Source of the DNA: an uncultured Candidatus Saccharibacteria bacterium
GTDB lineage: Bacteria > Patescibacteriota > Minisyncoccia > UBA9983
Length of the DNA stretch: 64,000 nucleotides
Reading direction: 5' to 3'
Assembly: GCA_964456855.1 (NCBI GenBank)
Contig: CAYWCU010000002.1
Location: 792-64,791 of the forward strand
Shown here: piece after piece, positions 43,214 through 63,199 of the stretch
Layout of the letters: every line of letters begins with the position of its first letter
How positions within the stretch are numbered: position 1 is the first letter of the stretch
Made by a program: the position numbers and the translations under genes
The notes under the pieces: model-generated
Seen by the model: only the letters and a program-made list of their open reading frames with translations
The model's database searches: none
What the model was told of the DNA's origin: nothing

Positions 43214-43603
43214 ATGCGAGAATTTCAAGAGAGAAAAAAAATACAAAAAAAAATCTTTTCACCTTTTGCGCTTGCGGCTCTTTTAATTCTCTTTCTTTTT
43301 TTGACCGTCTCAACGGCAAAAATGTATTTAAAGAGAAGAGCGGCGGCGGAAAAAAACAGAATAACCGAACGGCAACTTGTTGAAATCAAAGAAAAGAACG
43401 CGGAAATGAAAAAAGAAATAGAGCGCCTGCGAAGCGATTTTGGGAAGGAAGCGGAAATACGGAAAAAATTTAATGTTCAAAAACCGGGCGAGAAAGTAAT
43501 TGTGATAGTGGACAAAGTGCCGGAAAAAGATAAAATAAATCCAGAGAAAAAAGAGAGCGGTTTTTTCTCGGGCATTTTCAGAGCGATAAAAAATATATTT
43601 TAG
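43214..43603 (+). CDS. FtsB/DivIC-like septum formation initiator (TM + coiled coil)
   Basis: Single TM FALAALLILFLFLTV followed by a coiled coil (QLVEIKEKNAEMKKEIERLRSDF). Start at ATG 43214. Confidence 0.5.
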   Translation: MREFQERKKIQKKIFSPFALAALLILFLFLTVSTAKMYLKRRAAAEKNRITERQLVEIKEKNAEMKKEIERLRSDFGKEAEIRKKFNVQKPGEKVIVIVDKVPEKDKINPEKKESGFFSGIFRAIKNIF

Positions 43604-43676
43604 CGGGATTAGTTTAGTGGCAGAATACGACCTTCCCAAGGTTGAGGCACGGGTTCGATTCCCGTATCCCGCACCA
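43603..43676 (+). tRNA. tRNA-Gly (anticodon CCC)
   Basis: Cloverleaf with acceptor GCGGGAT/ATCCCGC, D-arm GTTT-AGTGGCA-GAAT, anticodon arm CGACC-TTCCCAA-GGTTG, T-arm ACGGG-TTCGATT-CCCGT, discriminator A and encoded CCA. Aligns to bacterial tRNA-Gly. Confidence 0.85.
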
Positions 43677-43696
43677 GAATAGAACTCGTCCGCGCC

Positions 43697-43805
43697 ACTC
43701 TCGCCTCGCTCTACTCGGCGAGCCACAAAAAAACAAAATTTGCCTTTTCACCACAGGCACTGCGTTTTGTATTCAATCTTGAACAAAACGGGAGCCTTTT
43801 TCAAA
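43697..43805. repeat. left terminal inverted repeat of the island
   Basis: gccactctcgcctcgctctactcggcgagcc ... ttcaccacaggcactgcgttttgtattcaatc ... gaacaaaacgggagccttt matches the reverse complement of 48300-48432. Confidence 0.7.
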
Positions 43806-43968
43806 AAAAATTGGGGGGCGAAAAAAAGGATAAAAACGCAAAGGCAAAATTTTGGTTTTTGTGGATTCGCTATGAGTGTTATTAAAGAAAGTAGTTTTTT
43901 GAAAATGTTAGAATATGTTATACTATCAGAATAGTAGAAAGAGAATATATTTTTTATCTAAAATACTT

Positions 43969-44166
43969 ATGTCCAACATTTCAAAAAATTTACGAAAAGC
44001 AAGAGAGAAAAAAGGTTTGTCGCAGGAGCGATTGGCACGGTTGGCAGATGTTGCTAATAACACCATAATCAAACTTGAGGCGGGCAAAAATCAAAATCCC
44101 ACGCTGGATACTTTGCAAAAAGTATCCAGAGCATTAGAAATGAGTGTTGATAATTTAATTAAATAA
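43969..44166 (+). CDS. XRE-family HTH transcriptional regulator (candidate controller C-protein)
   Basis: LRKAREKKGLSQERLARLADVANNTIIKLEAGKNQNPTLDTLQKVSRAL is a Cro/CI-type HTH. Located 4 nt upstream of the nuclease gene. Confidence 0.7.
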   Translation: MSNISKNLRKAREKKGLSQERLARLADVANNTIIKLEAGKNQNPTLDTLQKVSRALEMSVDNLIK

Positions 44167-44170
44167 TATT

Positions 44171-45052
44171 ATGACAAACAAAACATTAGATAAAAAAGAA
44201 GCAATAAAGTCTATAGTTAGAACAGCTGTCGAAGCTTACGCAACAGGATTTCAAGCTCGGCACGAAGGCGAGATTGATAACCCCAATGGAGTTATCAATA
44301 TGAAAATTCATAATGTTTTTATTGCCGCACTTGGTAAAGATATTCAATATTATTCTGCTCTCGTGCGTTCTCTTGATAGTTCGCTTGGAAACATGCTTGA
44401 GGGAATGGCTATAAATATTGCAAAACTTTTTTACGAAGTAAACAAAAGTGTTGAAGGAAATTTATATCCAGAACAAACATCAAAAATTGCTGAATTGTTA
44501 GAAGCATACAAAAATACAAAAAATCCTCTCAAGCCATTACTTTCACATTATGATGAAATACGAAAAATAAAACCTAACCCAAAATCTAAAATTCAAACCA
44601 AAGTCCATGTTAGCGATTATTATTTAATTGATAAAGAAACAAACACTCATCACTTGATTGAATTAAAAATTGGCGGAGATTTAGATAATAAAAAAGCGCG
44701 TTCTGAAAAAGAAGCAATTTTTGAGCAATATGCGATATTGTCAAACTCTTTAGATAAAAATGCAAAAATAAAAGCGCACTTCGCAACTGCTTATAATAGA
44801 TTTGGAGAAAATAGCGAATGGAAACAAGGAAGAGTTTTACAATTCTTTTCAAAAGACGAACTTTTGATTGGAAAAGATTTTTGGAATTTTGTTTGCAAGT
44901 CTGATGATGGTTATGATTTAGTTTTGGGTGTGTATAAAGAGGCAGTGAAAAATTTAAAATATAAAAAAGTTGATGATAATTTACATATTTTTGAAGAATT
45001 TAACAACATATCTTATTTTTTCAACAATAAATTTGAACCAATAACTATATAA
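44171..45052 (+). CDS. putative PD-(D/E)xK restriction endonuclease-like protein
   Basis: VSDYYLID ... HLIELKIGG fits a D...(D/E)xK nuclease core. The gene sits between an XRE C-protein-like gene and a methylase remnant. No close family assignment is possible by eye. Confidence 0.4.
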   Translation: MTNKTLDKKEAIKSIVRTAVEAYATGFQARHEGEIDNPNGVINMKIHNVFIAALGKDIQYYSALVRSLDSSLGNMLEGMAINIAKLFYEVNKSVEGNLYPEQTSKIAELLEAYKNTKNPLKPLLSHYDEIRKIKPNPKSKIQTKVHVSDYYLIDKETNTHHLIELKIGGDLDNKKARSEKEAIFEQYAILSNSLDKNAKIKAHFATAYNRFGENSEWKQGRVLQFFSKDELLIGKDFWNFVCKSDDGYDLVLGVYKEAVKNLKYKKVDDNLHIFEEFNNISYFFNNKFEPITI

Positions 45053-45059
45053 AAATAAT

Positions 45060-45710
45060 ATGACAAAAGTTGAAGCAATAAAAAAATTACTTGAAGATAA
45101 CGGAGGCATCGCCACTTGGGAGATTATTTATAATGAAATTGAAAAATATTACCCAACAGCAAAAGTGTCTCGAGAGTGGCAAGCAGGAATTCGCGGTGTT
45201 TTATATCGTGAAATTAAAAACAATAGAACTTTTAAGAAAATAGGAGAAGGGACTTTTGCTCTTTTAGATTATGATGAAAGTAGTTTAATTCTTCCAGAGG
45301 AAAAATTAGAAGGTAAAACAACAACAAAAGATGTCATTACAAAAATAAGGATTGGTCAAGCACAATTTAGAAAGAAATTGATTTTAAGTTTGAAAAGATG
45401 TCCTATTACAAAAATTGATGATCCCAGAATATTGAACGCAAGTCATATAAAACCATGGGTAATGTCAGACAATAAAGAAAGATTAGATACAAAAAATGGT
45501 TTTCTGTTTAGTCCAACTTTTGATAAATTGTTTGATAGAGGATTTATAACATTTTCAAATAACAAAGAAATTATAATTTCTGTAACACTTGCACAAAAAA
45601 ATATTGATAGATTAAATATATTTTCAGGACAACGATTTGAAGATTTGCCAGTTGCTGGTAGAGAAGAATATTTAGAGTACCACCGAAATAAGATTTTTTT
45701 GCATGCTTAG
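45060..45710 (+). CDS. HNH endonuclease (HNH_2-type) with an N-terminal winged-helix-like domain
   Basis: CPITKIDDPRILNASHIKPW ... NGFLFSPTFDKLFDRGFITF is the HNH_2 motif region. Confidence 0.6.
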   Translation: MTKVEAIKKLLEDNGGIATWEIIYNEIEKYYPTAKVSREWQAGIRGVLYREIKNNRTFKKIGEGTFALLDYDESSLILPEEKLEGKTTTKDVITKIRIGQAQFRKKLILSLKRCPITKIDDPRILNASHIKPWVMSDNKERLDTKNGFLFSPTFDKLFDRGFITFSNNKEIIISVTLAQKNIDRLNIFSGQRFEDLPVAGREEYLEYHRNKIFLHA

Positions 45711-45723
45711 TAATATATAACTT

Positions 45724-46551
45724 ATGAAAAAAGAATTTATCGTAAAAAATGTAAATATAAATTTTTTCTCTCAAAAAGAGGAAGATTTTATTTCGCTGAC
45801 TGATATTGCGAAATACAAGAACGCAGAAGCCCCTGCTGATGTGGTAAAAAATTGGCTTAGATCAAAAAATACCATTGAATTTCTTGGTTTTTGGGAAAAA
45901 ATTAATAATCCAAATTTTAAACTGGTCGAATTTGACCAGTTTTGGAAAAATGCTGGAACAAATGCTTTTGTTCTTTCTCCTAGCAAGTGGATAAGCACCA
46001 CAAACGCGATTGGTCTTATTTCAAAATCTGGAAGAAATGGTGGAACTTTTGCTCACAAAGATATTGCTTTTAAATTTGCATCTTGGATTTCTGCAGAATT
46101 TGAGTTGTATATAATTAAAGAATTTCAAAGACTTAAAGAAGATGAAAATGAACGATTACTACTTGGTTGGGATGCAAAACGAACACTAACAAAAATAAAT
46201 TATAAAATTCATACTGATGCGATAAAAAAGCATATTATTCCTCAATTAGTCACAAAAAAGGAAACTAAATTTATTTATGCAAATGAAGCCGATGTTTTAA
46301 ATGTCGCTCTTTTTGGAATGACAGCCAAACAATGGCGAGAGAAAAACAAAGGCAAAAAAGGTAATGTCCGTGATGAAGCAAATGTATATCAACTTGTTTG
46401 TTTGGCTAATTTGGAAAGTATGAATGCCGAACTTATTCGACAAGGAATTTCACAACCTGAAAGATTGAAACAATTAAATAAAATAGCAATTATTCAAATG
46501 CAGTCACTTGTTGAAAATAAAACTGTTAAAAAACTTTCATCTAGAAATTAA
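45724..46551 (+). CDS. KilA-N domain protein (phage-associated)
   Basis: ISLTDIAKYKN ... VKNWLRSKNTIEFLGFWE ... GTFAHKDIAFKFASWIS has KilA-N/APSES-like domain features. Confidence 0.6.
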   Translation: MKKEFIVKNVNINFFSQKEEDFISLTDIAKYKNAEAPADVVKNWLRSKNTIEFLGFWEKINNPNFKLVEFDQFWKNAGTNAFVLSPSKWISTTNAIGLISKSGRNGGTFAHKDIAFKFASWISAEFELYIIKEFQRLKEDENERLLLGWDAKRTLTKINYKIHTDAIKKHIIPQLVTKKETKFIYANEADVLNVALFGMTAKQWREKNKGKKGNVRDEANVYQLVCLANLESMNAELIRQGISQPERLKQLNKIAIIQMQSLVENKTVKKLSSRN

Positions 46552-46572
46552 GGATGTTTAATTTAAAAATAA

Positions 46573-46851
46573 ATGAAAGATACAGATTGGATTTTTGGAC
46601 TTTGCAAAGGCAAAGAAAGATTGAAAGATGAAAATGGAATAAAAGCACACCCTACACAAAAACCGCTAAAACTCATTCAGCAAGTTTTGCTTTCTGCAAG
46701 TAATAAGGGCGACATAGTTTTTGACCCATTTATGGGAAGTGGCACAACTGCGATTGTTGCCGAAGCACTTGGGCGAAAATGGTTTGGAATTGAGAAAGAT
46801 AAAAAATATGTCGCACTTGCCGAAAAAAGAATAGAATTTATAAAAAAATAA
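46573..46851 (+). pseudogene. C-terminal fragment of a beta-class N6A/N4C DNA methyltransferase (orphan remnant)
   Basis: HPTQKPLKLIQQVL ... FDPFMGSGTTAIVAEALGRKWFGIEKD contains the HPTQKP and FxGSGTT (motif I) elements. The DPPY catalytic region is missing because the ORF is only 92 aa. Confidence 0.7.
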
Positions 46852-46853
46852 TT

Positions 46854-47894
46854 ATGACAGAAGATTTTCCAAATTTAGATATCTATAGAAAAATCTTTAC
46901 TTTTCATGACTCTATTGTGAATAGAATTGTTTCAAGAGAAAGTAGTTGGCTTGAATTTAAAGAATCATTTAACTGGGGCTCTAAGGATAGATATGCAAAA
47001 AGTATAGCCGCTTTTGCCAATAATAAAGGTGGTTATATCGTATTTGGAATAAAAGATTTACCTCGTGATTTAGTTGGATTGCAAAGTAAAAATTTTGAAA
47101 CAATTGACGAAGCAAAAATAACAGACTACCTAAATAGTGTTTTTGCGCCAGAAATAATATTTAGTAAATTTGTAATAAAACTAAAATCTAAAGAAATTGG
47201 TATTTTACAAATTTTAGAAACTACTAACAAACCGTTAGTTTGTCTGAAAAATGACGGTGTGTTAAAAGAGGCAGAAATATATTATCGTTATAATTCAAGA
47301 AGTGAAAAAATAAAGTATCCAGAACTTATAGAATTATTTGAGCAAGTAAGAAAAGACGAGAGAAAAAGTTGGATGGAACATTTTGAAAAGATATCGAAAA
47401 TTGGTCCAGAAAATACTGCAATATTTGATACCATTAGCGGTAAAATAAGTGGTAAAAGTGGTACGCTTATTATAGATAAAAAACTTATCCCAAAATTAAA
47501 ATTTATTAACGAAGGAAAGTTTCGTGAGCATGGTAAACCTGTACTGAAATTAGTCGGTAGTGTAAAACCAGTCCTTATGACCAATAAAGCTAACAATGTT
47601 GGATTTCAGATAACGAATGATTTAAGAGCTCCAAAAGTTAGACTTGTCGAAGAAGAAATATTAAAAACAAAATATCCGTTTGACTATAATGAGCTCACAA
47701 TGAAATTGATTGCGAGATATGCTGATTTTGTACGAAATGCCAAATATCATAAATTACGAAAACGATTTATGAAAAATGAGAATTTATGTAAGACGCGATA
47801 TCTTGACCCAAAAAATTTAAAGGGTAGTAAAAAAGATTTTTATAGTCCTAAAATAATACAAGGATTTGATAAACATTATCAAAAGAGAAAATAA
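46854..47894 (+). CDS. AlbA_2 (Schlafen-like, PF04326) domain protein
   Basis: ESSWLEFKESFNWGSKDRYAKSIAAFANNKGGYIVFGIKD is the AlbA_2 signature. Long C-terminal region of unknown function. Confidence 0.55.
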   Translation: MTEDFPNLDIYRKIFTFHDSIVNRIVSRESSWLEFKESFNWGSKDRYAKSIAAFANNKGGYIVFGIKDLPRDLVGLQSKNFETIDEAKITDYLNSVFAPEIIFSKFVIKLKSKEIGILQILETTNKPLVCLKNDGVLKEAEIYYRYNSRSEKIKYPELIELFEQVRKDERKSWMEHFEKISKIGPENTAIFDTISGKISGKSGTLIIDKKLIPKLKFINEGKFREHGKPVLKLVGSVKPVLMTNKANNVGFQITNDLRAPKVRLVEEEILKTKYPFDYNELTMKLIARYADFVRNAKYHKLRKRFMKNENLCKTRYLDPKNLKGSKKDFYSPKIIQGFDKHYQKRK

Positions 47895-48299
47895 AGGGAG
47901 CAATGCTTGCGCGCGCATTGGGTGGGTGGGGCAAGCGCAATATGATTTGCTTGTGCTATCCGTTGCGTGATAGCACAATCCTTTTTCTTTTTTCTTTCCT
48001 TACAACTCACACAAAACTATAACCGAAGCCACTGAGCGAGCCACGAGAACACCGAGCAGGCATTACGAACGAAGTGAGTAGCCATGCGAGGTGTTTCTCG
48101 TTGGCGAGTGTACTCTCAAGTTACCACAATCGTAGCGCCACAGTTCGCAAAGGAATGGAAAAATGGCGAGTGTGTTGCGTAAGCAACAAAACTTGTTTTA
48201 ACGAGCCATTTTGGAATGACTGTAGCGAACCCGAACGACAAAACCATTTCCTTACCTTTCTTTCTTTTTCGGTGGAGGGGTCTGGGGAGGAGCCGAACA

Positions 48300-48432
48300 A
48301 CAAATTGAAAGGCTCCCGTTTTGTTCAAAAGGCGTTTAGCCGATTGAATACAAAACGCAGTGCCTGTGGTGAAATTTTGGTTTTGGTCGGGCGGCTCGCC
48401 GAGTGGAGCGAGGCGAGAGTGGCACGGTCGTA
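48300..48432. repeat. right terminal inverted repeat of the island, within a GC-rich structured non-coding stretch (47895-48640)
   Basis: Reverse complement gccactctcgcctcgctccactcggcgagcc ... ttcaccacaggcactgcgttttgtattcaatc ... gaacaaaacgggagccttt. Confidence 0.7.
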
Positions 48433-48576
48433 TTGCAGGAGTTACCACTAAACTCTCCTAGCGGAGAGAGTGGTCAGAATTACCACAGGCTCTCGCCGTG
48501 GAGAGCGTGCCGTCGCAACGGCACGCATTAGACAGCACGCACTCCGCGCGTTCCTCTTTGTTAATACGATTTGTTT

Positions 48577-48633
48577 TGAAAATAGGTTCGGATTTGGTAA
48601 AATAGAGGCACCAGAACAGAACTCGTCCGCCTT
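48577..48633. repeat. attR-like degenerate copy of the tRNA-Gly 3' half plus downstream 17 nt
   Basis: ataGGTTCGGATTtggtaaaatagagGCACCAGAACAGAACTCGTCCGC versus the tRNA end acGGGTTCGATTcccgtatcccGCACCAGAATAGAACTCGTCCGC. Confidence 0.6.
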
Positions 48634-48756
48634 TGGCGGGCTTTTTCTATTCTGGTGTGTTTATTGTACCAATATCAAACTTTCGGATTTTTAACTTTTC
48701 ATGGGTAGGGCGGGCTAAAAACGAAAAAGGAGCTCTTTGCGGAGCTCCTTTTGGTT

Positions 48757-49107
48757 TTACTTTTTTTTGATTATCTCATCAATGCCGTCCTTGCGGACAC
48801 TGATGAGTTCGCGTTCTATTTTAACCATGCGCTCTATTATATCAAGCGCAAGGCAAACCGGGACTTCTTTCGTCAACTTGAACTTGTGGACCATATACAC
48901 CGGACCGACAAGTCTATGAAAGATATAGACTCCCCTTTCCGGAGAATTGTCAGCAAACACGCTGACACTAACTTCCCCCAGTTTCATATCTTTGTTAAGG
49001 AATTCGGGTCTTCCCTGCGCCCGAACCTCTAAAACGTTCTTTCCGAATATTGCATAGAGGATGGCATGCCTGCCTTCCTCTATAGCCTCAAATCCTAATT
49101 CTTCCAT
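48757..49107 (-). CDS. hypothetical protein
   Basis: 116 aa ORF in a codon-plausible frame downstream of glmS. No domain recognised. Confidence 0.35.
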   Translation of the reverse strand: MEELGFEAIEEGRHAILYAIFGKNVLEVRAQGRPEFLNKDMKLGEVSVSVFADNSPERGVYIFHRLVGPVYMVHKFKLTKEVPVCLALDIIERMVKIERELISVRKDGIDEIIKKK

Positions 49108-49236
49108 CTTTTCTCCTCCCTTTTATTTCGCGCCTTCTTCAACGCGATTTTTAAAATTCAATGCATTGCCTGCCGCTAATATCGCACACTGGCAGATAAA
49201 AATCAAGAAGAATCGCACGGCTTCCATTCCAACCGC

Positions 49237-51063
49237 TTATTCCACGGTTACGGACTTTGCAAGATTTCTCGGCTTATCCACATCCAACCCTTTTAAAACC
49301 GCCATATGATACGCGAACAACTGCAAAGGAATCGCCGCCAAAATTGGGCTGAGCGGCTCAATCGTTTCTGGAACATAAATGACATCGCCCGCCACTGATT
49401 TTATTTTTTCATCTCCTTCCGTGGCGACCGCGATAATCCTCCCGCCCCGACATCTTATCTCCTCCATATTGCTTATGTTTTTTTCGTAAACGGAATCTTT
49501 AAGACAAATAAACATTGTCGGAAAATCATCGTCTATGAGGGCGATGGAGCCGTGTTTCATTTCTCCGGAAGGCATTCCTTCGGCGTGGATGTAAGAAAGT
49601 TCTTTCAGTTTAAGCGCGCCTTCCAGAGCTGTCGCGACATTGTATTTTCTCCCCAAGTAAAGAAAGTTTTTTGCCTTGATATGTTTTTCGGCTATTTTTT
49701 TAATTTCCCCGCTCAATTCCAATATCTTTTTTATTTTTTCCGGGATGAGAAGCAATTCGTTCAGGATGTCTTTCGCCTTCGCGAAGGTCATTTCCCTTTG
49801 CCTGCCGAAATAAACGGACAACAACGCCATTATCGCCGTCTGCGATGTAAAAGCCTTGGTTGAGGCGACCGACATTTCAAGCCCGATACGATTATGGACA
49901 CAGGCGTCAAGTTCGCGCGCTATAGTGGAGCCGAGGACATTGACCACGCCGAGCGTCGTGGCTCCTCTTTTCTTCCCTTCCCTCAGAGCCGCCAGCGTGT
50001 CCGCCGTTTCTCCGGACTGGCTGATTGCCAACAGAAGGGTGTCTTTGCCGATAACGGGAGTTCGGTAACGGAATTCCGAGGCGTAATCCACCTTGCTTGG
50101 AACACCCGCCATTTCCTCAAACATATATTCTCCGACCAATCCGGCATGCATAGCGGTTCCGCAAGCGACAATGGCAATTTCGCGCGCGGAGCGCGCCGTT
50201 TCAGTAAAAGCGTCAAATTCTTCAAAAATAGCTTCCCCTTTCTCCGAATCTATGCGACCCCTAACGCTGTTTAAAATTGCCTCAGGCTGTTCAAAAATTT
50301 CTTTGAGCATAAAATGAGGAAATCCTTTCTTTTCCGCCTCGCCCGAATCCCAATCTATTTTCCGTGGCTCTTTGGATATCTCAGCACCGAGAACATCAAG
50401 AATCTTCAAGCCGTTCTTCCTTATTTCCACAACCTCCCCGTCGTCAAGATAAATAACTTCCCTCGCCCGGGAGATTATGGCGGAAATATCCGAGGCGATT
50501 ATCGTTTCTCCGTCCCCCAGTCCGATGACAAGCGGACTGCCCATTTTCGCCGCCATAATTTTTTCCGGAAAATCTTCATGGATAAAAACAATGGCATAGG
50601 CCCCTTTGAGCATTTTTAACGCTTTCCGCATGGCAATGAACGGATTGGCTTCATGGGTGTCTTCAATCAAATGAGCAATCACTTCCGTGTCCGTTTGGGA
50701 CTTAAAAATATGCCCTTTCGCCTCCAGTTCTTCTTTTAATCTTTTGTAGTTTTCAATAATGCCATTATGCGCCAGCCAAATTTTTCCAGAACAATCGGAA
50801 TGAGGATGAGCGTTAATCTCGTTTGCCTCCCCGTGAGTCGCCCAACGGGTGTGCGCTATTCCCAAATCAGCCCTCCTTTCTTTGCCACCCAATTTTTTTT
50901 CCAGATTGGCTATTTTCCCGACCGCCTTCACGCATTCAATTCCGCCGGTCAAACGCAAAGCCACTCCAGAAGAATCATATCCTCGGTATTCCAAACGCTT
51001 AAGCCCGTCAATCAAGGCGGGCAATGCGTCATTTTTTCCCAAATATCCGACTATTCCGCACAT
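49237..51063 (-). CDS. glmS: glutamine--fructose-6-phosphate aminotransferase (isomerizing)
   Basis: N-terminal MCGIVGY (Cys nucleophile), a glutaminase domain and two SIS domains, ending ...AKSVTVE. Start set to ATG 51063. Confidence 0.95.
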   Translation of the reverse strand: MCGIVGYLGKNDALPALIDGLKRLEYRGYDSSGVALRLTGGIECVKAVGKIANLEKKLGGKERRADLGIAHTRWATHGEANEINAHPHSDCSGKIWLAHNGIIENYKRLKEELEAKGHIFKSQTDTEVIAHLIEDTHEANPFIAMRKALKMLKGAYAIVFIHEDFPEKIMAAKMGSPLVIGLGDGETIIASDISAIISRAREVIYLDDGEVVEIRKNGLKILDVLGAEISKEPRKIDWDSGEAEKKGFPHFMLKEIFEQPEAILNSVRGRIDSEKGEAIFEEFDAFTETARSAREIAIVACGTAMHAGLVGEYMFEEMAGVPSKVDYASEFRYRTPVIGKDTLLLAISQSGETADTLAALREGKKRGATTLGVVNVLGSTIARELDACVHNRIGLEMSVASTKAFTSQTAIMALLSVYFGRQREMTFAKAKDILNELLLIPEKIKKILELSGEIKKIAEKHIKAKNFLYLGRKYNVATALEGALKLKELSYIHAEGMPSGEMKHGSIALIDDDFPTMFICLKDSVYEKNISNMEEIRCRGGRIIAVATEGDEKIKSVAGDVIYVPETIEPLSPILAAIPLQLFAYHMAVLKGLDVDKPRNLAKSVTVE

Positions 51064-51286
51064 AAGCGATAATTTAAACAATGCTCTGTTGTCTTCAGAT
51101 TAACACTTTAGCAAGCTTCGGGCAATAAAGAATTTCAGAGCTCGTCCTTATTATTTTTGTGAATGCATAAGTTCACTAACATATGGCACTCTTCTAAAAA
51201 GAAGAGAAATGAAGAAATAAAGGGGACCTGTTATTCGGTCTCCTTTTTAAATTGCTCAAAAAAGCGAAATAGTATAAAATAGGGAT

Positions 51287-52237
51287 ATGCTTATCGCAAA
51301 TGAAAAAGAAATGGAAGAGTTTCTGAGCAAGCTCAAATCAGAGTTTAAGTTTTATGATGAAAAAAACGAGGCTCCGCGAGGAGGAATGAATTTTAAAAGA
51401 CATTTTTTCCCGGCCAGACAAGAAACTTTCTCAAAAACGGAAGCGGGCGGAATTGTAACCCCCGAGGCTCCCGAAGAATTTATTGTTTTCGGCTTAAATC
51501 TTCCCGACCTTGAGGCACTCACCTATTTTGACGAGATAATGAAAAACCCAAACGAAGATTTTTATTATCTCAGAAACAGAGAGCGGTCAATTGTTATCGG
51601 GTTAATTCAAGAGGAGATTGACGCGCAACCGGGAGGAGATATTATTTTTCAAGATATCGGTGGCGGACGATATAAGGTTTGGCAAAATACGGACAAAGGG
51701 AAAGATTTGATTAAAAAACACAAAAAGTTTTTTGAAGAAGTTGAGGACGATAACAAGAAAAACGCCCCGCAAATCCCGGAAAACAAATCACTGGGTGAGT
51801 GGTCGCAGTCAATGCGCGCGCTACTTGTTGACCCAGAGCTTTTGGCGAAAGCGGTGGAATGGTCGCATGACCATCCGATTTGGGATGAACTTGGAAAAAG
51901 GTGCTTGGGATGCGGGATTTGCACCTATGTCTGCCCCATCTGCTATTGCTTCTCAATTGAAGACAGTGTCGGGCTGGACGGCAGTTGCAAGCGATGCAGA
52001 AAGTGGGACGCGTGCACGCTTCCCGAGTTCGCGAAAATCACCGGGGGACACAGTTTCCGCCCGACGATAAAGGAGAGATATTATAACTGGTTTTACCATA
52101 AGTTTGTCAGGGCGTATAATGAATATGGGAGATCGCAATGTGTGGGGTGCGGTCGGTGCAAAAAATTCTGCCCGGCAAGTATTGATATTTACGAGGTGTT
52201 GTCTGTAATTTTAAAAGATTATAAGAATAGTCGGTAG
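51287..52237 (+). CDS. 4Fe-4S dicluster protein, sulfhydrogenase beta (HydB) / AsrA-like
   Basis: CLGCGICTYVCP and CVGCGRCKKFCP ferredoxin motifs in the C-terminal third. Confidence 0.6.
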   Translation: MLIANEKEMEEFLSKLKSEFKFYDEKNEAPRGGMNFKRHFFPARQETFSKTEAGGIVTPEAPEEFIVFGLNLPDLEALTYFDEIMKNPNEDFYYLRNRERSIVIGLIQEEIDAQPGGDIIFQDIGGGRYKVWQNTDKGKDLIKKHKKFFEEVEDDNKKNAPQIPENKSLGEWSQSMRALLVDPELLAKAVEWSHDHPIWDELGKRCLGCGICTYVCPICYCFSIEDSVGLDGSCKRCRKWDACTLPEFAKITGGHSFRPTIKERYYNWFYHKFVRAYNEYGRSQCVGCGRCKKFCPASIDIYEVLSVILKDYKNSR

Positions 52238-52268
52238 CCGGTATGTCGGTGGCCAAACAAAAAAACAG

Positions 52269-52934
52269 ATGAGTTTTGAAAAAACCGAATTTGAATCCAA
52301 GCCAAAGATTGAGATTGAGGAAAGTTTCCGCGAATTCCTCCCCGAGGAATTCGCGAACGACCCAATGGGTTATTTTGAAAAAGAAGGCGAGAAAATAAAA
52401 AAAGGGGAAATAAAGTATGCGGAAGAAGGCAGAATCCGAGAAGATCCGACATGCGTAAAAGATCTACCCACATGGACGGGCAAAAAGGGATCCGAATTAC
52501 GCGCGGTGGGGAAAAAAGTGAACATAATAAAAGGACAAGTGGGCAGAACAGGCAATCCTTTCCATGAATACGAGGTGATGAAGATTGTTGACGAGTTGGG
52601 CTTGCCTTGCGCGAGACCGATATTAAAAGCGAAGCAAGGAGAAAATTACTTGATTATAACGGAAAAAATCCCGGGCACGCGTTGGACGGAAAGAGACCTT
52701 TTGAAATTAAAATCAGAATTGAAGCAAGAGGGTTATTCAGATGAAGACATTGAAGACTTAAAGGAGCAGGCCGAAAAACAAATGGAAGAAATGAAGAAAA
52801 AATTTGCCGAGATGGGAATCATGCGCAAATGGAAACTGAATGACATGGTTTTTGACATAGATATTAAGAACAAGAGGATTAGAAAAATAACGCCAACCGA
52901 CTGGGAACGCACCGAAATTATAAAAGACCGATAG
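52269..52934 (+). CDS. hypothetical protein with a degenerate protein-kinase-like (RIO/Kdo-kinase-like N-lobe) fold
   Basis: NIIKG...EYEVMKIVDELGLP...NYLIITEKIPG resembles a kinase N-lobe and hinge. The catalytic-loop position reads WKLNDMVFDI instead of HxDLxxxN. Confidence 0.3.
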   Translation: MSFEKTEFESKPKIEIEESFREFLPEEFANDPMGYFEKEGEKIKKGEIKYAEEGRIREDPTCVKDLPTWTGKKGSELRAVGKKVNIIKGQVGRTGNPFHEYEVMKIVDELGLPCARPILKAKQGENYLIITEKIPGTRWTERDLLKLKSELKQEGYSDEDIEDLKEQAEKQMEEMKKKFAEMGIMRKWKLNDMVFDIDIKNKRIRKITPTDWERTEIIKDR

Positions 52935-52999
52935 AGTCAATGGTAGCTAGCGGGATTAGCTGATAGTGACCAGCTAAATAGCTTGTAGAAAAAAATATT

Positions 53000-53827
53000 A
53001 TGAACAACATTTACGAACCACAATTAGTTAAAATAACAAAGATTGAAGAACAGTCGCCGACCGTGAAGTTGTTTCGGCTGGAAAAAATTGACGGCAAATT
53101 TAAAAAAGACGAAGACGGGCTCGTTTTCCGACCGGGGCAGTTCGTGATGGTCGGACAAATCGGATACGGCGAGTCGCCACTTGGTCCCCTTTCTTCTCCC
53201 TATGAGGATAAATATATTGAAATCGCAGCGCGCAAGGCGGGAACCGTGACGAGTTATCTGCACTCACTGAAGGAGGGTGATGAAATCACTCTTCGCGGAC
53301 CGCTCGGGAACGGATTTCCTCTGGAATTTATGGAGGGCAAGGATGTTGTGTGCGCCACAGGGGGATGCGGAATTCCTCCGATTGCCGCTCTTGTTGAATA
53401 TATGGTTGAAAACAAAGAAAAATTCGGGAGAATTTATGTGCTTTACGGAGCGAAAACTCCCGATGAATTGTTGATGAGAGAGAAAATGAAAGATTGGGAA
53501 AAAGAAGGCGTAAAAATAATTTTAACGATAGACAAACCGAATAAAAACTGGAAGGGTCCCGTCGGTTTTGTAACGGATTTGGTCAAAGAGATAGAAGTTG
53601 ACGAAGTGAACGCGGTCGCCACAATGTGCGGTCCGGGACCGATGGTCGGAGCCTTGGAAAAGGTTTTGCGGCCACTCGGAATTTCCGACAGAAGAATCTT
53701 CGTCAGTATGGAAAGAAAAATGCAGTGCGGAGTCGGCAAATGCCAGCACTGCACCACCGGCAAAAAATATGTTTGCCTTGACGGTCCGGTGTTTAATTAT
53801 GATGAAATAGAGAATAATAAAGATTAG
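53000..53827 (+). CDS. FAD/NAD(P)-binding oxidoreductase with a C-terminal 2Fe-2S cluster, sulfhydrogenase gamma (HydG) / PyrK-like
   Basis: RPGQFVMV, GGCGIPP (NAD-binding), C-terminal CGVGKCQHC. Confidence 0.7.
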   Translation: MNNIYEPQLVKITKIEEQSPTVKLFRLEKIDGKFKKDEDGLVFRPGQFVMVGQIGYGESPLGPLSSPYEDKYIEIAARKAGTVTSYLHSLKEGDEITLRGPLGNGFPLEFMEGKDVVCATGGCGIPPIAALVEYMVENKEKFGRIYVLYGAKTPDELLMREKMKDWEKEGVKIILTIDKPNKNWKGPVGFVTDLVKEIEVDEVNAVATMCGPGPMVGALEKVLRPLGISDRRIFVSMERKMQCGVGKCQHCTTGKKYVCLDGPVFNYDEIENNKD

Positions 53828-53895
53828 TAATTATGGGTTTCCGCCCAAGGCGGATGCTCATAATTTAACAATTCACCCGCGGTGAATTAAAAATT

Positions 53896-54651
53896 ATGGC
53901 AAAACCAAAAATAGCAATATATGATTTTACGGACTGCGAAGGATGCGAGGTAAAACTCGTTTCTTTGAGGGAGCGACTTTTGGCACTTGAACAAAAGATA
54001 GACATCGTAAACTGGAGATTGGGACAGGAGCATTTTGAACCAGGTCCTTACGACATTACGATTATAGAGGGCACGCCCATTCACAAAAACGAAATCACTT
54101 TATTGAAAGAGTTGCGCGAAAATTCAAAGGTTTTGGTGGCGCTCGGAGCCTGCGCCGCCTTGGCGGGGATCCCCGGCATAATGCCGGAAAAAGACAGGAA
54201 GATTTGGTACGAGAAAATTTATTCTTCGCAATACAAACCGGTGGGAGTGGACGCGGTGCCTCTGTCCGCCTATGTGGATGTTGATTTCGCCATTCACGGA
54301 TGTCCGGTTGACGAGGACGAGGTGGTGAGAGTTTTTGAAGAATTGCTCGCCGGAAAGACGCCAAGTTACCGAGGGTTCTCCGTTTGTTTTGACTGCAAAC
54401 AGGCGGGCAATCCGTGCAGAATAGCGGAAGAAAAAAAGCCGTGTATGGGTCCGATTACCCAAGGAGGATGCAAAGCGATTTGCGTTTCCGGCGGCTCGCC
54501 ATGCTACGGATGCTTCGGAATCCGCGAGGAGGCGAACATTCCCTCGCTTGTAAAAATATTGAAAAAAATCGCGGACAAAGAAACCGTTGAACGATATCTC
54601 ACAATGTTCCACAGCAGAACTCCGGAAATCAAAGAACATTTGAAAAAATAA
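53896..54651 (+). CDS. NiFe-hydrogenase small-subunit-like protein (HydD/MvhG-like)
   Basis: KIAIYDFTDCEGCEV, GACAALAGIPG, HGCPVDEDE, and a C-terminal Cys cluster CKQAGNPC...CMGPITQGGCKAICVSGGSPCYGCFG. Confidence 0.65.
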   Translation: MAKPKIAIYDFTDCEGCEVKLVSLRERLLALEQKIDIVNWRLGQEHFEPGPYDITIIEGTPIHKNEITLLKELRENSKVLVALGACAALAGIPGIMPEKDRKIWYEKIYSSQYKPVGVDAVPLSAYVDVDFAIHGCPVDEDEVVRVFEELLAGKTPSYRGFSVCFDCKQAGNPCRIAEEKKPCMGPITQGGCKAICVSGGSPCYGCFGIREEANIPSLVKILKKIADKETVERYLTMFHSRTPEIKEHLKK

Positions 54652-54768
54652 AAAATCTAAAAAATTGTCCCCCCTTGATTAAACCGCCTAAAAAGAGTAA
54701 GAATTAAGAGAGGATTCAGCACCCTGACAAATAAATCCCACCAAGTGGAATGAATAGAGGGGGAAAAA

Positions 54769-54975
54769 TTGGTAACAATAAGGAACAAAAAGGCGAAAAG
54801 GATAATCAGAGAAACAGGTTATCTGCATGATTGTATTGTGCAGGGAGACCTTGATTTGTCCGATTTTGATGAAGTGAAAATAGAATATGTAGTAATAAGA
54901 GGAGATTTGAAGGTGCGACAAGCCGGATTGTGTCTTCATTTTTGCGAAATATCGGGGAATCTGCATCTCAAATAG
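54769..54975 (+). CDS. small hypothetical protein (TTG start), paralog of 55033-55365
   Basis: Shared pattern TG.L.DC.V.G.L.LSDF plus repeated G(D/N)L motifs. Both genes have a conserved ~45 nt leader (aaaaagagtaagaattaagagagRattcagcacMctgacaa) upstream. Confidence 0.4.
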   Translation: MVTIRNKKAKRIIRETGYLHDCIVQGDLDLSDFDEVKIEYVVIRGDLKVRQAGLCLHFCEISGNLHLK

Positions 54976-55032
54976 TGCTCAAAAAGAGTAAGAATTAAGA
55001 GAGAATTCAGCACACTGACAATTCCATAGGAG

Positions 55033-55365
55033 GTGGAAATGGGAACCATAAACAGCGAGGAAGCAAAAAAGAGGATCTCAAAGACAGGGCGCTTGGCGGA
55101 CTGCTCCGTTAATGGAAATCTGAATCTCTCAGATTTCCATTATATCAAGAAAATTGTCTTAACGGACGTGACTGTCAATGGAAACCTAACGGTCGGGTCA
55201 AAGGGCCTCTATCTTTATTACACAAAGATAGAGGGGGACATATACCTTGAAGAAAAGGAGATGGATTACTTTGAGTCATTTTACTCAAAGTGCAAAATTC
55301 TCTTTTTGGAGGGGGTGCGGGTGAAGAGCCTGCATTTAAAAATGAGAATAAAGAATATAATGTAA
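55033..55365 (+). CDS. small hypothetical protein, paralog of 54769-54975
   Basis: Strong RBS aggaggtggaaATG. Repeated GNLNLSDF / GNLTVGSKGL units suggest a short beta-solenoid. Confidence 0.45.
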   Translation: MEMGTINSEEAKKRISKTGRLADCSVNGNLNLSDFHYIKKIVLTDVTVNGNLTVGSKGLYLYYTKIEGDIYLEEKEMDYFESFYSKCKILFLEGVRVKSLHLKMRIKNIM

Positions 55366-55440
55366 AACAAAAAGTCGGCGCGATTAGCCGACTTTTTTTA
55401 ATCTTATTTATTTTATCCGGTCGCGACAATGCCAACTGTT

Positions 55441-56358
55441 CTATTTTTTCCGTTCCTGAAATTTATACATCGTGACCAGCAACGGAGAGGCGAGAAATAC
55501 CGATGAATAAGTTCCGGCTGCGACTCCTATGATAAGCGCCAATGAAAAGAATTTCGTTGTTTCGCCCCCAAAGAAGAATACCGCCCCCAAGACGAGCAAT
55601 ACTGTCAACGAGGTGTTAATTGAACGAGTGAGCGTTTGGTGAACACTAACACTAACTGTGTCTTCAAAACCGTCGCCTATCTTTCTGTGCAGGTTCTCGC
55701 GAACCCTGTCAAAGACGACAATTGTGTCGTGAACTGAAAAACCTAAAATGGTAAGGAGCGCCGTTACAAACAAAACATCCACCTCCGCTCCAAAATATTT
55801 CCCTAAAATGGCAAACACTCCGAGTGGCAACATTACATCGTGGAAAAGCGCCACAATCGCCATTAAGCCGTATTTGAACGAAGAAACAGGTCTTGAAACA
55901 CTGCGGAAAACAAAGGCGATATAGAGGATAATCATCAAGACCACCAAGGCGATGGCAATCCATGATTTTTGGCGAAGTTCCTTGCCTATGACCGGACCGA
56001 TTGAATCAAAACGAAGTTCCTTCAGTTGGGTTTTTCCCGAGGCTTCGGCTCCGGAGTTCCCGAGACGAAGCGCCACCAAGAGTTTCTGGTGCTCGTCATT
56101 GCTAAGATTTTTTGAACGAATAATCAAACCATTTTCTCCCGTAGGTTGAACAATGGCGTTTTCCAAATTAATATTGGTCAATTCCTGTTTAATTATTGAT
56201 ACATCAGGTCTTGGGCTTTGATACTCAATTTCCACAAGCGAACCGCCGGTAAAATCAATACCCCAATTGAGTCCGAAGTAAAAAACTGAAAATATGCTGG
56301 CGAAAACAAAGATTCCCGAGATAGTGTACCAAATTTTTCTGTGTTTGATGATATTCAT
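55441..56358 (-). CDS. secF: protein translocase subunit SecF
   Basis: SecF topology and the SecD/SecF C-terminal TM bundle (LLTILGFSVHDTIVVFDRVREN). Confidence 0.9.
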   Translation of the reverse strand: MNIIKHRKIWYTISGIFVFASIFSVFYFGLNWGIDFTGGSLVEIEYQSPRPDVSIIKQELTNINLENAIVQPTGENGLIIRSKNLSNDEHQKLLVALRLGNSGAEASGKTQLKELRFDSIGPVIGKELRQKSWIAIALVVLMIILYIAFVFRSVSRPVSSFKYGLMAIVALFHDVMLPLGVFAILGKYFGAEVDVLFVTALLTILGFSVHDTIVVFDRVRENLHRKIGDGFEDTVSVSVHQTLTRSINTSLTVLLVLGAVFFFGGETTKFFSLALIIGVAAGTYSSVFLASPLLVTMYKFQERKK

Positions 56359-56363
56359 TTTTT

Positions 56364-57683
56364 TTAATTTCTAATTCCGCTTCCCATTAAAAATCGGCTG
56401 AATTTGTTATCTCCTTTAATTCCCAATGCCAACAAAAAAGTTCTGGAGATGGTAATCGCGGAAAACATACTGACTAAAACTCCAATTCCCAAAGTGAGCG
56501 CAAATCCTTTAACCATACTTGTTCCCATCCAATAAAGGATAGTGGCGGAAATCAAACTAGAGGCGTTTGAATCGCGTATGGAAAGCCACGCGCGGGAAAA
56601 TCCTTCGGTTATTGCGGCTGAAAAAGATTTTCCTTCCTGACGCTCCTCTTTCATTCGCTCAAAAATAAGGATATTGGCATCAACGGCCATACCGACGGAA
56701 AGAATAAATCCGGCAATTCCGGCGGAAGTAAGAGTAACGGGGATGAGTTTGAATATCGCCAAAACCAATATAGTATAAATCGCCAACGCCAGAACGGAAA
56801 TCAATCCGGGGAGGCGATACCAAAGAATAAGGAATATCGCCACTAAAATAATACCGTAAATTCCCGCCCTAATTCCTTTAAAAAGTATCTTCTCTCCGAG
56901 AGTCGGTCCAACGCTTTGTTGAGAAATAAGGGCGATGGGAACCGGGAGAGCTCCGGAATTTAAACGCTGAACCATAGTCTTGGCTTCTTTCGCCGTAAAC
57001 TGCCCTGTAATTTGAGCTTTTCCCCCCGTAATCTCATCTCTTATTACCGGGGTGGTTATCGGGACGCCGTCCAAAAATATAGCCAGTTTCTTGCCAATGT
57101 TGTTTTTTGTTATCTTGGCAAAAAGTTCCGCTCCTTTTTTATTAAAATCAAGAGTAACATAAGGTTCAAATGTCGTCTGGTTAAAATCAAGACGGGCTTT
57201 GCTTAAAAATCTTCCGGTCAACCCGGTCGGCAAAAAGACTTTATTGATGTCCGATCCTTCGGCAGCTTTAACATTCGGATTTTCCAGACGGAATTCAAGA
57301 AAAGGGGTTTCTCCTATCATTTTAATCGCTTGATTGACATTCGTAACACCCGGCAATTCAATGATAAGCCGCTGTTCCCTCTGCCCCACCGTCTTTAGAA
57401 TTCCCTTTTCCTCAACCTGCACCAAAGGTTCGGCGACACCGAAAAGATTGACGCGTCTTTCAATAACATCCCGCAACCCTTCCATCGCCCCGGAAATTTC
57501 AGCCGGCTTTATGGCGGACACATCGGCTCTGTAAACCAAATGGACTCCTCCCTGAAGGTCAAGTCCGAGTTTAAACGGCTTGGAAAATACTGAATTCGGA
57601 TTAACCGTATGCAAAATATCAAAATAGCCGACAATGATGCCGGTTAAAATAAGAAAAACCGCAATAATCCTGTATTTGGCCAT
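56364..57683 (-). CDS. secD: protein translocase subunit SecD
   Basis: GLDLQGGVHLVY..., periplasmic domains, C-terminal TM bundle (MAVDANILIFERMKEE). Confidence 0.9.
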   Translation of the reverse strand: MAKYRIIAVFLILTGIIVGYFDILHTVNPNSVFSKPFKLGLDLQGGVHLVYRADVSAIKPAEISGAMEGLRDVIERRVNLFGVAEPLVQVEEKGILKTVGQREQRLIIELPGVTNVNQAIKMIGETPFLEFRLENPNVKAAEGSDINKVFLPTGLTGRFLSKARLDFNQTTFEPYVTLDFNKKGAELFAKITKNNIGKKLAIFLDGVPITTPVIRDEITGGKAQITGQFTAKEAKTMVQRLNSGALPVPIALISQQSVGPTLGEKILFKGIRAGIYGIILVAIFLILWYRLPGLISVLALAIYTILVLAIFKLIPVTLTSAGIAGFILSVGMAVDANILIFERMKEERQEGKSFSAAITEGFSRAWLSIRDSNASSLISATILYWMGTSMVKGFALTLGIGVLVSMFSAITISRTFLLALGIKGDNKFSRFLMGSGIRN

Positions 57684-58024
57684 TTCAATATATGTTACGC
57701 CATTTTCTTTTTTTTTGCAAACTCAATAATCCACTTTAACGCCCAACGCTCGGGTAATACGACACCGGAGATAAAATTGATAAAAAATATCAACAATTTT
57801 TCTCTCGCGAAACATTAAAGCGACAAAAGCCCTCAATAAAGGCGTTCTGCGGAAAAACAACGCGCGCCAAACTACTCCGATTTCCCGACAAAAGGATTAG
57901 GGCAAAAAAACCATTCATTTCCATAATTTCTTCCATTTCTTTTTCCGGTTGTCCTCTTTTTCAATTCAGACGGTCTCCCGATTAAACTGTCGTATTCTCT
58001 TTTAAATATCTGGGGTTTTAATGC

Positions 58025-58840
58025 CTATTTGTTTAATTCCACTAAATTTTTGAAGACCATCGCTACCGTAAGGGGTCCAACTCCTCCCGGAACGGGTGTG
58101 AAGAAAAACGCCTTTTCCTCCACGGCCGAATCAACATCACCCACAAGACAGCCGTCTTTCACGGCTGTCCCGGCATCAATAATCGTAACTCCATTTTTTA
58201 CCATATCCAGAGAAATCAGTCCCGGCTTTCCCGTTCCGCTCACAATTATATCGGCTTCTTTAATGTGCTTTAAAATATCCCCGCTGTTTGCCCTGAGAAC
58301 GGAAACAGTGGCGCCGTGATTTATAAGCCAGACGGCACTCGGTTTGCCGACGAGTTCTCCGGCGCCGACTACGACGGCGTTTTTCCCGGAAGGGTCAAGA
58401 CCGCATCTGCCGAGAATTTCTTTTACAGCTCCAGCGACGGGAGGCAAAACATTTTCAATACCGGCGACAAAACGCCCTATTGCCAACGAAGACAAAACAT
58501 CAACGTCTTTGTCCCCGGGTATGGAATCAAGAACGCTTCGTTGATTAATGTGAGAGGGCAAGGGAAGTTGGACGATAACGCCGTTATTCTTTCCTTCTCT
58601 GCATATTTGAGACACTTTTTGGCTGAGTTCGGCAGTCGCCACTTTTAAAGGAAAACCATAAAAATTAACTTCTATTCCGAGGTCTTCGGCGAATTTTTGT
58701 TTCTGCCGAACAAACCTCGCCGAAACTTCATCTTCTCCAACTTGAACAATGCCGATTGCCAATTTTTTGCCGGAATTTTGAAGTCTTTCTTTAAGACTTT
58801 CTTTTATTTCTTCAGCTATTTGTTTTCCTTCAATTATCAT
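58025..58840 (-). CDS. folD: bifunctional methylenetetrahydrofolate dehydrogenase / methenyl-THF cyclohydrolase
   Basis: MIIEGKQIAEEI..., VVVGAGELVGKP, TPVPGGVGPLTVAM. Confidence 0.95.
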   Translation of the reverse strand: MIIEGKQIAEEIKESLKERLQNSGKKLAIGIVQVGEDEVSARFVRQKQKFAEDLGIEVNFYGFPLKVATAELSQKVSQICREGKNNGVIVQLPLPSHINQRSVLDSIPGDKDVDVLSSLAIGRFVAGIENVLPPVAGAVKEILGRCGLDPSGKNAVVVGAGELVGKPSAVWLINHGATVSVLRANSGDILKHIKEADIIVSGTGKPGLISLDMVKNGVTIIDAGTAVKDGCLVGDVDSAVEEKAFFFTPVPGGVGPLTVAMVFKNLVELNK

Positions 58841-58844
58841 GGTT

Positions 58845-60041: not shown

Positions 60042-60108
60042 TATTTTTATTGTAGCCGAATTCTCTTTTTTTTTCCATTAAAACTAAAAGTTTGATATAA
60101 TAAAAACA

Positions 60109-60651: not shown

Positions 60652-60691
60652 TTTCACGCTCAAAAACGAAAAGTTTGATATAATAAAAACA

Positions 60692-61243: not shown

Positions 61244-61245
61244 TT

Positions 61246-63142: not shown

Positions 63143-63199
63143 TGTTCTATTATAACACGAAATAAATTTAGAATCTCATACAATAAAAGTGGTTTTCCG

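Follow-up and report, generated by a model that had tools for sequence, protein, structure and literature searches.

A tRNA-Gly island in a Saccharibacteria contig is probably a recombinase-deleted copy of an integrative defense-cassette family of Patescibacteria

Staphylococcal cassette chromosome (SCC) elements and pseudo-SCC elements, the latter recombinase-less, are moved by the large serine recombinases CcrAB and CcrC. Cis-mobilizable elements (CIMEs) are integrase-less remnants of integrative elements that keep their attachment (att) sites. Among C-controlled Type II restriction-modification (R-M) systems with two methylases, the pneumococcal DpnII cassette (with the D12-class DpnM and the N6_N4-class DpnA) has an alternative, the DpnI cassette, at the same locus. 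To our knowledge, the mobile elements and defense islands of Patescibacteria, or candidate phyla radiation (CPR), have barely been characterized. Here we describe an island at the 3' end of a tRNA-Gly(CCC) gene in a 64-kb stretch of DNA (the window) from an uncultured Candidatus Saccharibacteria bacterium (assembly GCA_964456855.1, contig CAYWCU010000002.1). We consider it, at a probability of roughly 60%, to be a recombinase-deleted and probably immobile copy of an integrative cassette family of Patescibacteria. Related loci that were fetched for comparison carry the labels L006, L085, and so on.

The family resembles SCC elements in the placement of a cassette at the 3' end of a conserved gene, in its direct and terminal inverted repeats, in a variable cargo that includes R-M genes, in its association with a large serine recombinase, and in the existence of tandem copies and of decayed copies without recombinase. 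It differs in that many tRNA 3' ends, rather than rlmH, appear to be targeted, that the hosts are Patescibacteria, and that the cassettes are bounded by conserved, structured, non-coding arms of 0.2 to 0.7 kb with an outward promoter. Unlike in SCC, the recombinase lies outside the arm-bounded cargo, with inverted repeats of its own (110 to 150 nt). The serine recombinase that apparently targets tRNA genes, the structured arms with their promoter, the position of the recombinase outside the cargo, and the Patescibacteria-wide spread set the family apart from its known kin, and the arms are unexplained; the island itself is an ordinary, decayed, mosaic defense cassette. Full-text literature searches found no description of this arm and cassette family. 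Like a CIME, the window copy keeps both junction repeats without a recombinase and could at best be moved in trans. In contrast to a CIME, its left junction is damaged, with the outer arm and half of a palindrome deleted, so that even mobilization in trans is doubtful.

The tRNA-Gly(CCC) gene occupies 43603 to 43676 on the + strand (ARAGORN; Rfam tRNA model, 67 bits). The gene is kept intact, and foreign DNA begins at 43677. The left junction repeat, the 23-mer GCACCAGAATAGAACTCGTCCGC (43671 to 43693, + strand), opens with the terminal GCACCA of the tRNA gene and continues for another 17 nt. A second copy at 48608 to 48630 matches at 22 of 23 positions, with a single T>C mismatch; the 64 kb hold just these 2 copies, and none of 100 shuffles gave any match. 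The initial annotation of the stretch had recognized this direct repeat, and its coordinates for the right copy (48611 to 48633) were 3 nt too high. It had also described imperfect inverted repeats of about 110 bp around an AT-rich cargo. Both features hold: segments of about 115 bp at 43687 to 43799 and 48308 to 48430 pair in blocks of 38 nt (92%), 33 nt (100%), and 21 nt (100%), with a 13-nt insertion in the right arm, and are recovered by blastn (77% over 129 columns, E = 8e-25). GC content is 0.24 to 0.35 in the cargo versus 0.40 to 0.55 in the flanks. An exact look-up of the left flanking protein returned no record. The island is 100% identical in three further public assemblies of this organism, whose contigs break at the 33-nt perfect inverted repeat (positions 43749 and 48345), at 47936 (a Logan contig end), and at 47059 (an NCBI contig end). 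Neither of the last two positions has a repeat of at least 31 nt, and both ends may reflect strain heterogeneity inside the island.

The right arm (48308 to 48611, + strand) consists of the inverted-repeat blocks (48308 to 48430) and an outer module (48431 to 48611) that ends in the conserved terminus of the family; its coverage by other loci rises to 107 at 48560 to 48619. Within this terminus lies an invariant 25-mer, AAATAGGTTCGGATTTGGTAAAATA (48580 to 48604), present once in the window. It is the sequence that had been described as a degenerate T-arm preceding the right repeat, and this part does resemble a degenerate tRNA T-arm. The 25-mer has exact matches in 108 fetched stretches from many Patescibacteria classes, of which 82 are metagenomic and 26 are GTDB genome contigs; the GTDB set includes metagenome-assembled genomes labeled as Saccharibacteria, Uhrbacteria, Ryanbacteria, Zambryskibacteria, Jacksonbacteria, Liptonbacteria, Campbellbacteria, Doudnabacteria, Paceibacteria, and others. 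Viral contigs of IMG/VR gave 0 matches to the 25-mer, and the inverted-repeat block had 0 matches in viral contigs. When the loci were aligned on the 25-mer, similarity always stopped after ..GCAC, beyond which 91 distinct sequences followed. A third, decayed inverted arm end to the right of the junction (48653 to 48676) was considered and set aside as weak, given that 10 of 500 shuffles scored as high.

The left arm is a remnant (43687 to 43872) comprising the 38-nt block, a hairpin insertion (43746 to 43799), and a conserved module (43795 to 43872) in front of the first cargo gene; compared with a full arm, it lacks ~190 nt on the outer side. Arm modules are 88 to 95% identical in L020, L021, L066, L085, and L092. 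In L006, blastn showed that the GC-rich segments 47894 to 48312 and 48378 to 48623 are also conserved (84 to 89%), and there the second of these segments flanks the cassette on both sides as inverted repeats of ~400 bp that end beside tRNA-Leu. The hairpin insertion (~55 to 67 nt; 43746 to 43799 and 48308 to 48374) is found in both window arms and in neither arm of L006 or L020, which implies that the two arms of one element evolve in concert.

Ten loci contain two outward-facing copies of the 25-mer, 1.2 to 7.2 kb apart. The cargo between such paired arms includes Type III R-M and PIN genes (L020), an AlwI R-M system with two methylases and AAA_13 (L063), Shedu together with R-M (L085), an ART toxin (L067), and transporter or metabolic genes (L068, L107, L021, L071); none of these paired-arm cargoes contains a transposase or integrase. 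In L062 (8990 to 12450) and L089 (2303 to 5749), an arm and 3.4 kb of inner DNA are 98.8% identical and the flanks differ at once outside. The breakpoint falls exactly at the arm end, which is joined to tRNA-Thr(TGT) in one locus and to unrelated DNA in the other.

Between the last cargo gene and the right arm lies a GC-rich, structured non-coding module (47895 to 48310, + strand) that occurs once per element and is 79 to 86% identical in L006, L020, L033, L063, L085, L035, and L068. Its predicted pairing is supported by compensatory base-pair changes: 97.5% of the alignment cells are paired, and 14 pairs have changed on both sides, compared with 5.8 ± 1.4 in shuffles and 1 to 3 in slid controls. 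The z score is -5.7, and the alignment folds better on the + strand (-80 versus -60 kcal/mol). Rfam 15 matched nothing but the tRNA between 43000 and 49500 at E <= 1, and the arms remained unmatched in 20 related loci as well. On the contig of L037, a full-length LOOT RNA (RF03000, 79.6 bits; 3156 to 3274, - strand) lies ~2.6 kb from the arm end.

One of the commonest sequences outside the arm end is the leader of a large serine recombinase gene. The product in L043 (554 amino acids [aa]) has Resolvase, Recombinase, and Zn_ribbon_recom domains, and recombinases 62 to 100% identical to it were located by tblastn directly outside the arm in at least 16 loci. The gene stands at the tRNA-proximal edge in L043, L085, L067, L071, and others and is absent from the window. 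No recombinase was found in the window: the other open reading frames (ORFs) in GC-rich DNA had no Pfam match there, and tblastn with the serine recombinase of a relative returned nothing. The reported lack of an integrase is accordingly true of this copy and does not extend to its intact relatives, which encode the large serine recombinase. A recurrent layout (L043, L067, L071, L085) runs from a tRNA gene (Leu, Lys, and others) ending in ..GCACC(A) through a repeat of 110 to 150 nt, a recombinase gene converging on the tRNA, the same repeat inverted, an arm, the cargo, and the second arm inverted. The recombinase of L067 lies between 150-nt inverted repeats that are 99.3% identical. In L007, tRNA-Ser is accompanied by a recombinase-homologous stretch without a called gene, and inverted arm-like modules surround the cassette. 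After removal of duplicate flanks, 90 distinct arm ends with at least 60 nt of outward flank were tallied; 12 have a recombinase, a further 13 lie within 160 nt of a convergent tRNA, and 13 border a stretch similar to the recombinase 3' end.

These arrangements suggest that the recombinase moves the element and inserts it at the GCACC(A) end of tRNA genes, with the recombinase unit belonging to the element. The arm terminus itself ends in GCACC(A) after the degenerate T-arm, and an outward sigma-70-like promoter is predicted at 48576 to 48603 (+ strand; TTGAAA, 16-nt spacer, TGgTAAAAT), overlapping the 25-mer. The predicted promoter points into the recombinase gene in intact relatives and would be read in that direction. 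In the window, a terminator-like hairpin (48610 to 48650) follows the promoter within ~15 nt, and the promoter, if active in this copy, would make merely a ~40-nt hairpin RNA. In L040 (3508 to 5079, - strand), the recombinase ORF continues past the junction and reaches its stop after 13 codons of arm sequence, inside the 25-mer (..SSFVV followed by RLFYQIRTYFQNR and the stop). The arm end and the recombinase 3' end can thus be contiguous, as expected of an unrecombined attP-like site, and the 25-mer is coding on one strand and promoter-like on the other. The recombinase ORF of L043 instead runs on antisense through tRNA-Leu.

The right junction (48608 to 48657, + strand) consists of the second repeat copy (48608 to 48630) inside a 50-bp imperfect palindrome (48609 to 48657) that scores as an intrinsic terminator at 48625 to 48650. 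The same palindrome adjoins the arms in L006, L106, L085, and others, and it could be either a recombination site or a collapsed recombinase module. The right 23-mer is the arm end (GCACCA) plus the first 17 nt of the repeat that, in relatives, follows the tRNA and leads into the recombinase 3' end; the 17 nt of the left junction repeat are the start of that same repeat. The counterpart of the left junction in L085 reads tRNA-Leu..GGCACCA followed by GAATAGAACTTGTCCGCC.., and the sequence after this tRNA, GGCACCA followed by GAATAGAACTTGTCCGCCTTTGGCGGGC..., corresponds to the window's "att core" plus palindrome.

The left junction, in which tRNA-Gly..CCAGAATAGAACTCGTCCGC is joined directly to GCCACTCTCGCC, is accounted for by a deletion. 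Positions 43659 to 43693 of the window align to the tRNA-Leu end and repeat of L085, and positions 43680 to 43749 align to the interior of the L085 arm (..ACCTCATCCGC followed by GCCACTCTCGCC). The two L085 positions are ~2,040 nt apart, and the DNA between them comprises the remainder of the repeat, the recombinase with its inverted repeat copy, and the outer arm. The window sequence is reproduced if a deletion is placed between CTCGTCCGC and CTCATCCGC, which are short direct repeats (CTCRTCCGC). Such an event of ~2 kb would have taken out the recombinase together with the second repeat, most of the first, and the outer left arm, and would have fused the tRNA-Gly trailer to the left-arm interior to create an apparent attL; it explains the absent integrase. 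The initial annotation had interpreted the repeats as a classic attL/attR pair. A foreign island with site-specific junctions at the tRNA-Gly 3' end is upheld by our analysis, and the enzyme was most likely a serine recombinase that has been lost by deletion.

Several points weigh against a recombinase-deleted copy of an integrative family. The loci were gathered by one exact 25-mer and form a biased sample, and a tRNA or recombinase adjoins just about one-third of the arm ends. No circular junction was found, and an empty site (tRNA T-arm and acceptor joined to the right flank) had 0 exact matches in metagenome and genome contigs. L102 is the only syntenic relative, and its gene order differs after a 116-aa gene, which rules it out as an empty-site relative. 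A shared repeat of 23 nt is long for serine-recombinase sites, which usually share only 2 bp. The palindrome at 48609 to 48657 could simply be the native tRNA terminator. Finally, the recombinase lies outside the arm-bounded segment and may represent an independent element with the arm end as its target.

A bolder reading, which we consider less likely than not, is that arms and recombinase together make up a cassette platform that has spread horizontally across Patescibacteria. Its circular form would contain two inverted (arm plus att) repeats parting the recombinase segment from the cargo, as in the 2-micron plasmid. Such a platform could enter the 3' end of nearly every tRNA gene, invert, and trade defense cargo, and the GC-rich module of ~0.4 to 0.7 kb would be a required new structured RNA or cis-acting DNA element. 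If the model of an integrative cassette family holds, one non-coding chassis with a serine recombinase would explain the transfer of R-M, Shedu, toxin, and candidate defense genes between distant CPR lineages. The 25-mer would be a sequence tag for finding such islands, the recombinases would represent a set of natural enzymes targeting tRNA 3' ends, and the module would be a candidate new structured RNA or DNA element.

It is rather unlikely, in our judgment, that the arms are instead portable homology, regulatory, or structural DNA (promoter, terminator, and possibly a large structured RNA) between which cassettes are swapped by DNA uptake and homologous recombination, while independent recombinase units merely prefer GCACCA-ending arm termini and tRNA ends. 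The 85 to 100% conservation of arms across classes around wholly different cargo fits such an arrangement, as do gene-sized swaps that break at gene boundaries, the recombinase unit's own inverted repeats of 110 to 150 nt, and the base pairing kept in the 47895 to 48310 module. The arm end is also often a promoter directly upstream of host genes (tyrS, tsaD, tRNA-His). However, the similarity among loci ends at one nucleotide (..GCAC) in 91 contexts, which argues for site-specific breakage and not homologous exchange; moreover, in L040 the recombinase ORF runs straight into the arm, and the window holds a single copy in 64 kb.

An improbable alternative is a classical tRNA island formed by a tyrosine integrase with a 23-bp att core, in which the integrase was lost without trace and the arms and serine recombinases are unrelated neighbors. 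The 22/23 direct repeat that takes in the tRNA 3' end, the degenerate T-arm before the right copy, the AT-rich cargo, and an identity of 23 bp, typical of such enzymes, would all suit this history. Yet no tyrosine integrase occurs in the window or among the recurrent ORFs of the ~110 related loci surveyed, the 17-nt sequence behind GCACCA is found again beside arm ends and other tRNAs (Leu, Val) with a serine recombinase, and the left copy is accounted for by the deletion junction.

A non-autonomous transposon with terminal inverted repeats (miniature inverted-repeat transposable element [MITE]-like or casposon-like), moved in trans by some other transposase, is very improbable and was rejected, since the conserved ~45-nt ends, the ten inverted pairs flanking cargo, and an IS200/IS605 TnpA remnant beside one end (L106/L011) are countered by differing flanks with no target-site duplication at paired ends, by the absence of a transposase or Cas1 from every cargo, by a low copy number (one in the 64-kb window), and by a TnpA fragment that is cut by the arm end rather than framed. 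That TnpA-like ORF (L106, 2117 to 2392, identical in sequence to L011; ..KERFPILKKHYWGTDSLWSAGYFVSTVG..) lies in a 1.2-kb "empty" inverted arm pair beside tRNA-Val. It is a 5'-truncated remnant abutting a short arm end, and an origin of the arms from IS200/IS605 or RAYT elements was likewise rejected.

The cargo of the window copy comprises six genes, all on the + strand, that were identified with Pfam, PADLOC, and NCBIfam profiles and agree with those first listed. The first encodes an XRE/HTH_3 regulator of the C-protein type (43915 to 44166; Pfam HTH_3, 4.7e-15; PADLOC control-protein models) that probably starts at 43969. The second, previously a nuclease-like ORF, is a Type II restriction endonuclease gene (R) of the TdeIII/HinfI family (44171 to 45052; PF09520 RE_TdeIII, 3.8e-36). 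It is followed by a gene for a HARE-HTH-like N-domain joined to an HNH_2 nuclease (45060 to 45710; Pfam HNH_2, 8e-11; HARE-HTH, 0.002, a weak match; PADLOC HNH, 1.6e-28). A KilA-N protein (45724 to 46551; Pfam KilA-N, 5.9e-22) is a full-length match to the PADLOC candidate family PDC-S22 (4.3e-132, profile positions 5 to 275 of 281). The 92-aa product of 46573 to 46851 is the 3' remnant of a beta-class N6/N4 DNA methylase, matching only positions 144 to 221 of the 221-position Pfam N6_N4_Mtase profile. The last gene encodes an AlbA_2/Schlafen-like protein (46854 to 47894; Pfam SLFN_AlbA_2, 4.5e-23). Its N terminus is the AlbA_2 domain, and its match to PADLOC PDC-S19 (1.2e-31) is partial rather than full length, confined to the C-terminal ~100 aa (residues 244 to 345 against profile positions 228 to 328 of 330).

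A precedent for KilA-N proteins in defense is BstA, an abortive-infection protein of prophages that carries KilA-N at its N terminus (10.1101/2020.07.13.199331). The window protein is similarly the product of a single gene, with an N-terminal KilA-N domain and in a defense context; it differs in that it was matched by no BstA model, and PDC-S22 has only the status of a candidate family.

The suggestion that HNH, KilA-N, and AlbA_2 genes form one undescribed defense module is not supported by their distribution: they are independently swappable units in relatives (L007, L121, L123 to L126, and viral contigs). The HNH gene travels with R, behind which it stands in L007 in the absence of both KilA-N and AlbA_2. 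The order R-HNH-KilA-N recurs in L121, where KilA-N is 86% identical, and other KilA-N relatives (57 to 61% identical) occur in two viral contigs without HNH and AlbA_2. AlbA_2 belongs to a stand-alone family (~348 aa, 710 homologs, mostly from Patescibacteria). None of the fetched R-containing loci has an AlbA_2 homolog, and relatives in L123 to L126 lie among Fic and MazE genes without HNH or KilA-N. By tblastn, the window C gene shares 95% identity with the gene that opens the AlwI-type element of L063 and only 39% with the C gene of L006. These separate contexts, together with the L063-like C gene, indicate that the cargo is a mosaic of gene-sized units, apparently assembled as in defense islands generally, and the individual genes may act as independent defense units. 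In this mosaic, the C-type regulator is shared with an AlwI-type element, R belongs to the TdeIII/HinfI family, and the stand-alone AlbA_2 gene fills the terminal slot.

The ancestral form of the R-M portion is represented by L006, in which R is 97% identical and an intact cassette encodes C, R (275 aa), a D12-class methylase (374 aa), an N6_N4 methylase, M2 (259 aa), and AAA_13. As in DpnII, this ancestral cassette contains both classes of methylase, and alternative cassettes lie between conserved flanks. It differs from DpnII in that R belongs to the TdeIII/HinfI family (PF09520) and not to the DpnII family, and in that both methylases are gone in the window while R is kept under purifying selection. 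On the cargo side, the window copy looks like a C-controlled, two-methylase cassette into which other defense genes have intruded. The window's 92-aa ORF corresponds to residues 167 to 259 of L006 M2 (96% identity). It retains FDPFMGSGTT and has lost DPPY (residues 31 to 34 of M2); the earlier inference of a truncated methylase, as opposed to a complete small protein family, is thereby borne out. Searches of the 64 kb by tblastn with 10 methylase queries found neither the missing methylase parts nor any other DNA methylase, and a second methylase in the window was rejected on these grounds.

Related loci record similar decay. In L007, C, R, and HNH_2 are followed by two small ORFs, a methylase remnant of 142 aa, and a DUF4238 gene. 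L119 contains R, a HARE-HTH/NmeDI_C nuclease gene, and a 221-aa methylase remnant that starts exactly after DPPY. In L121, R (82% identical), HNH_2, and KilA-N are ordered as in the window, and the contig breaks off partway through KilA-N. Truncation of the second methylase has gone to a different point in each of the window, L119, and L007. In the window, the HNH gene occupies the slot of the D12-class methylase, and comparison of the loci suggests that a nuclease with a HARE-HTH-like N-domain replaced this first methylase. The HARE-HTH/HNH nuclease and KilA-N genes would together have taken the place of the D12 methylase along with the first two-thirds (5' part) of the second one. The gene after R in L119 (1451 to 2170) shares its HARE-HTH-like N-domain with the window HNH protein (67% identity across 77 aa) and has an NmeDI_C nuclease domain instead, a domain swap in the same slot. 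From general knowledge of HARE-HTH domains, the HARE-HTH/HNH_2 protein is probably a modification-reading, Type IV-like restriction enzyme, and on similarly general grounds the arrival of such a nuclease would be incompatible with the methylases.

The R gene is intact, including its catalytic core. It has more than 2,700 homologs, hundreds of them 70 to 97% identical and from Patescibacteria metagenomes, and the catalytic residues D149, E164, and K166 are invariant in 18 homologs. A PDB sequence search with R gave no match, and the predicted structure, of moderate confidence (mean pLDDT, 67), has a fold like that of R.EcoO109I (PDB 1wtd; a PD-(D/E)xK Type IIP enzyme with 17% identity to the window R), in line with the nuclease fold initially assigned to 44171 to 45052. 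The last ~37 aa are a replaced tail, disordered in the model, and the end of R has been rewritten at the same place, after ..YK. The R core is under strong purifying selection although no methylase is linked to it: the ratio of nonsynonymous to synonymous substitution rates (dN/dS) is 0.06 against L007 (dS, 0.95) and 0.03 against L006 (dS, 0.38). Corresponding values against L007 are 0.14 (dS, 1.77) for HNH and 0.056 (dS, 1.69) for the methylase remnant.

The paradox of a nuclease without its methylase, to which the initial annotation had drawn attention, is therefore real, and it is recurrent. A recurrent methylase-less R under strong purifying selection is a separate puzzle concerning the decay or reuse of R-M systems. 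Site avoidance was rejected as its cause. GANTC occurs 160 times (0.79 of expectation), GGNCC occurs at 0.80 of expectation, and no 4- to 6-mer is absent, so the genome is not free of plausible sites. The host may be protected by an unlinked methylase, or R may be silent. Separately, four-base palindromes are scarce in the host DNA (1 to 43676 and 48660 to 64000), with observed-to-expected ratios of 0.10 for TCGA, 0.20 for GGCC, 0.26 for ACGT, 0.31 for GATC, and 0.45 for GTAC, which suggests long exposure to four-cutter restriction systems.

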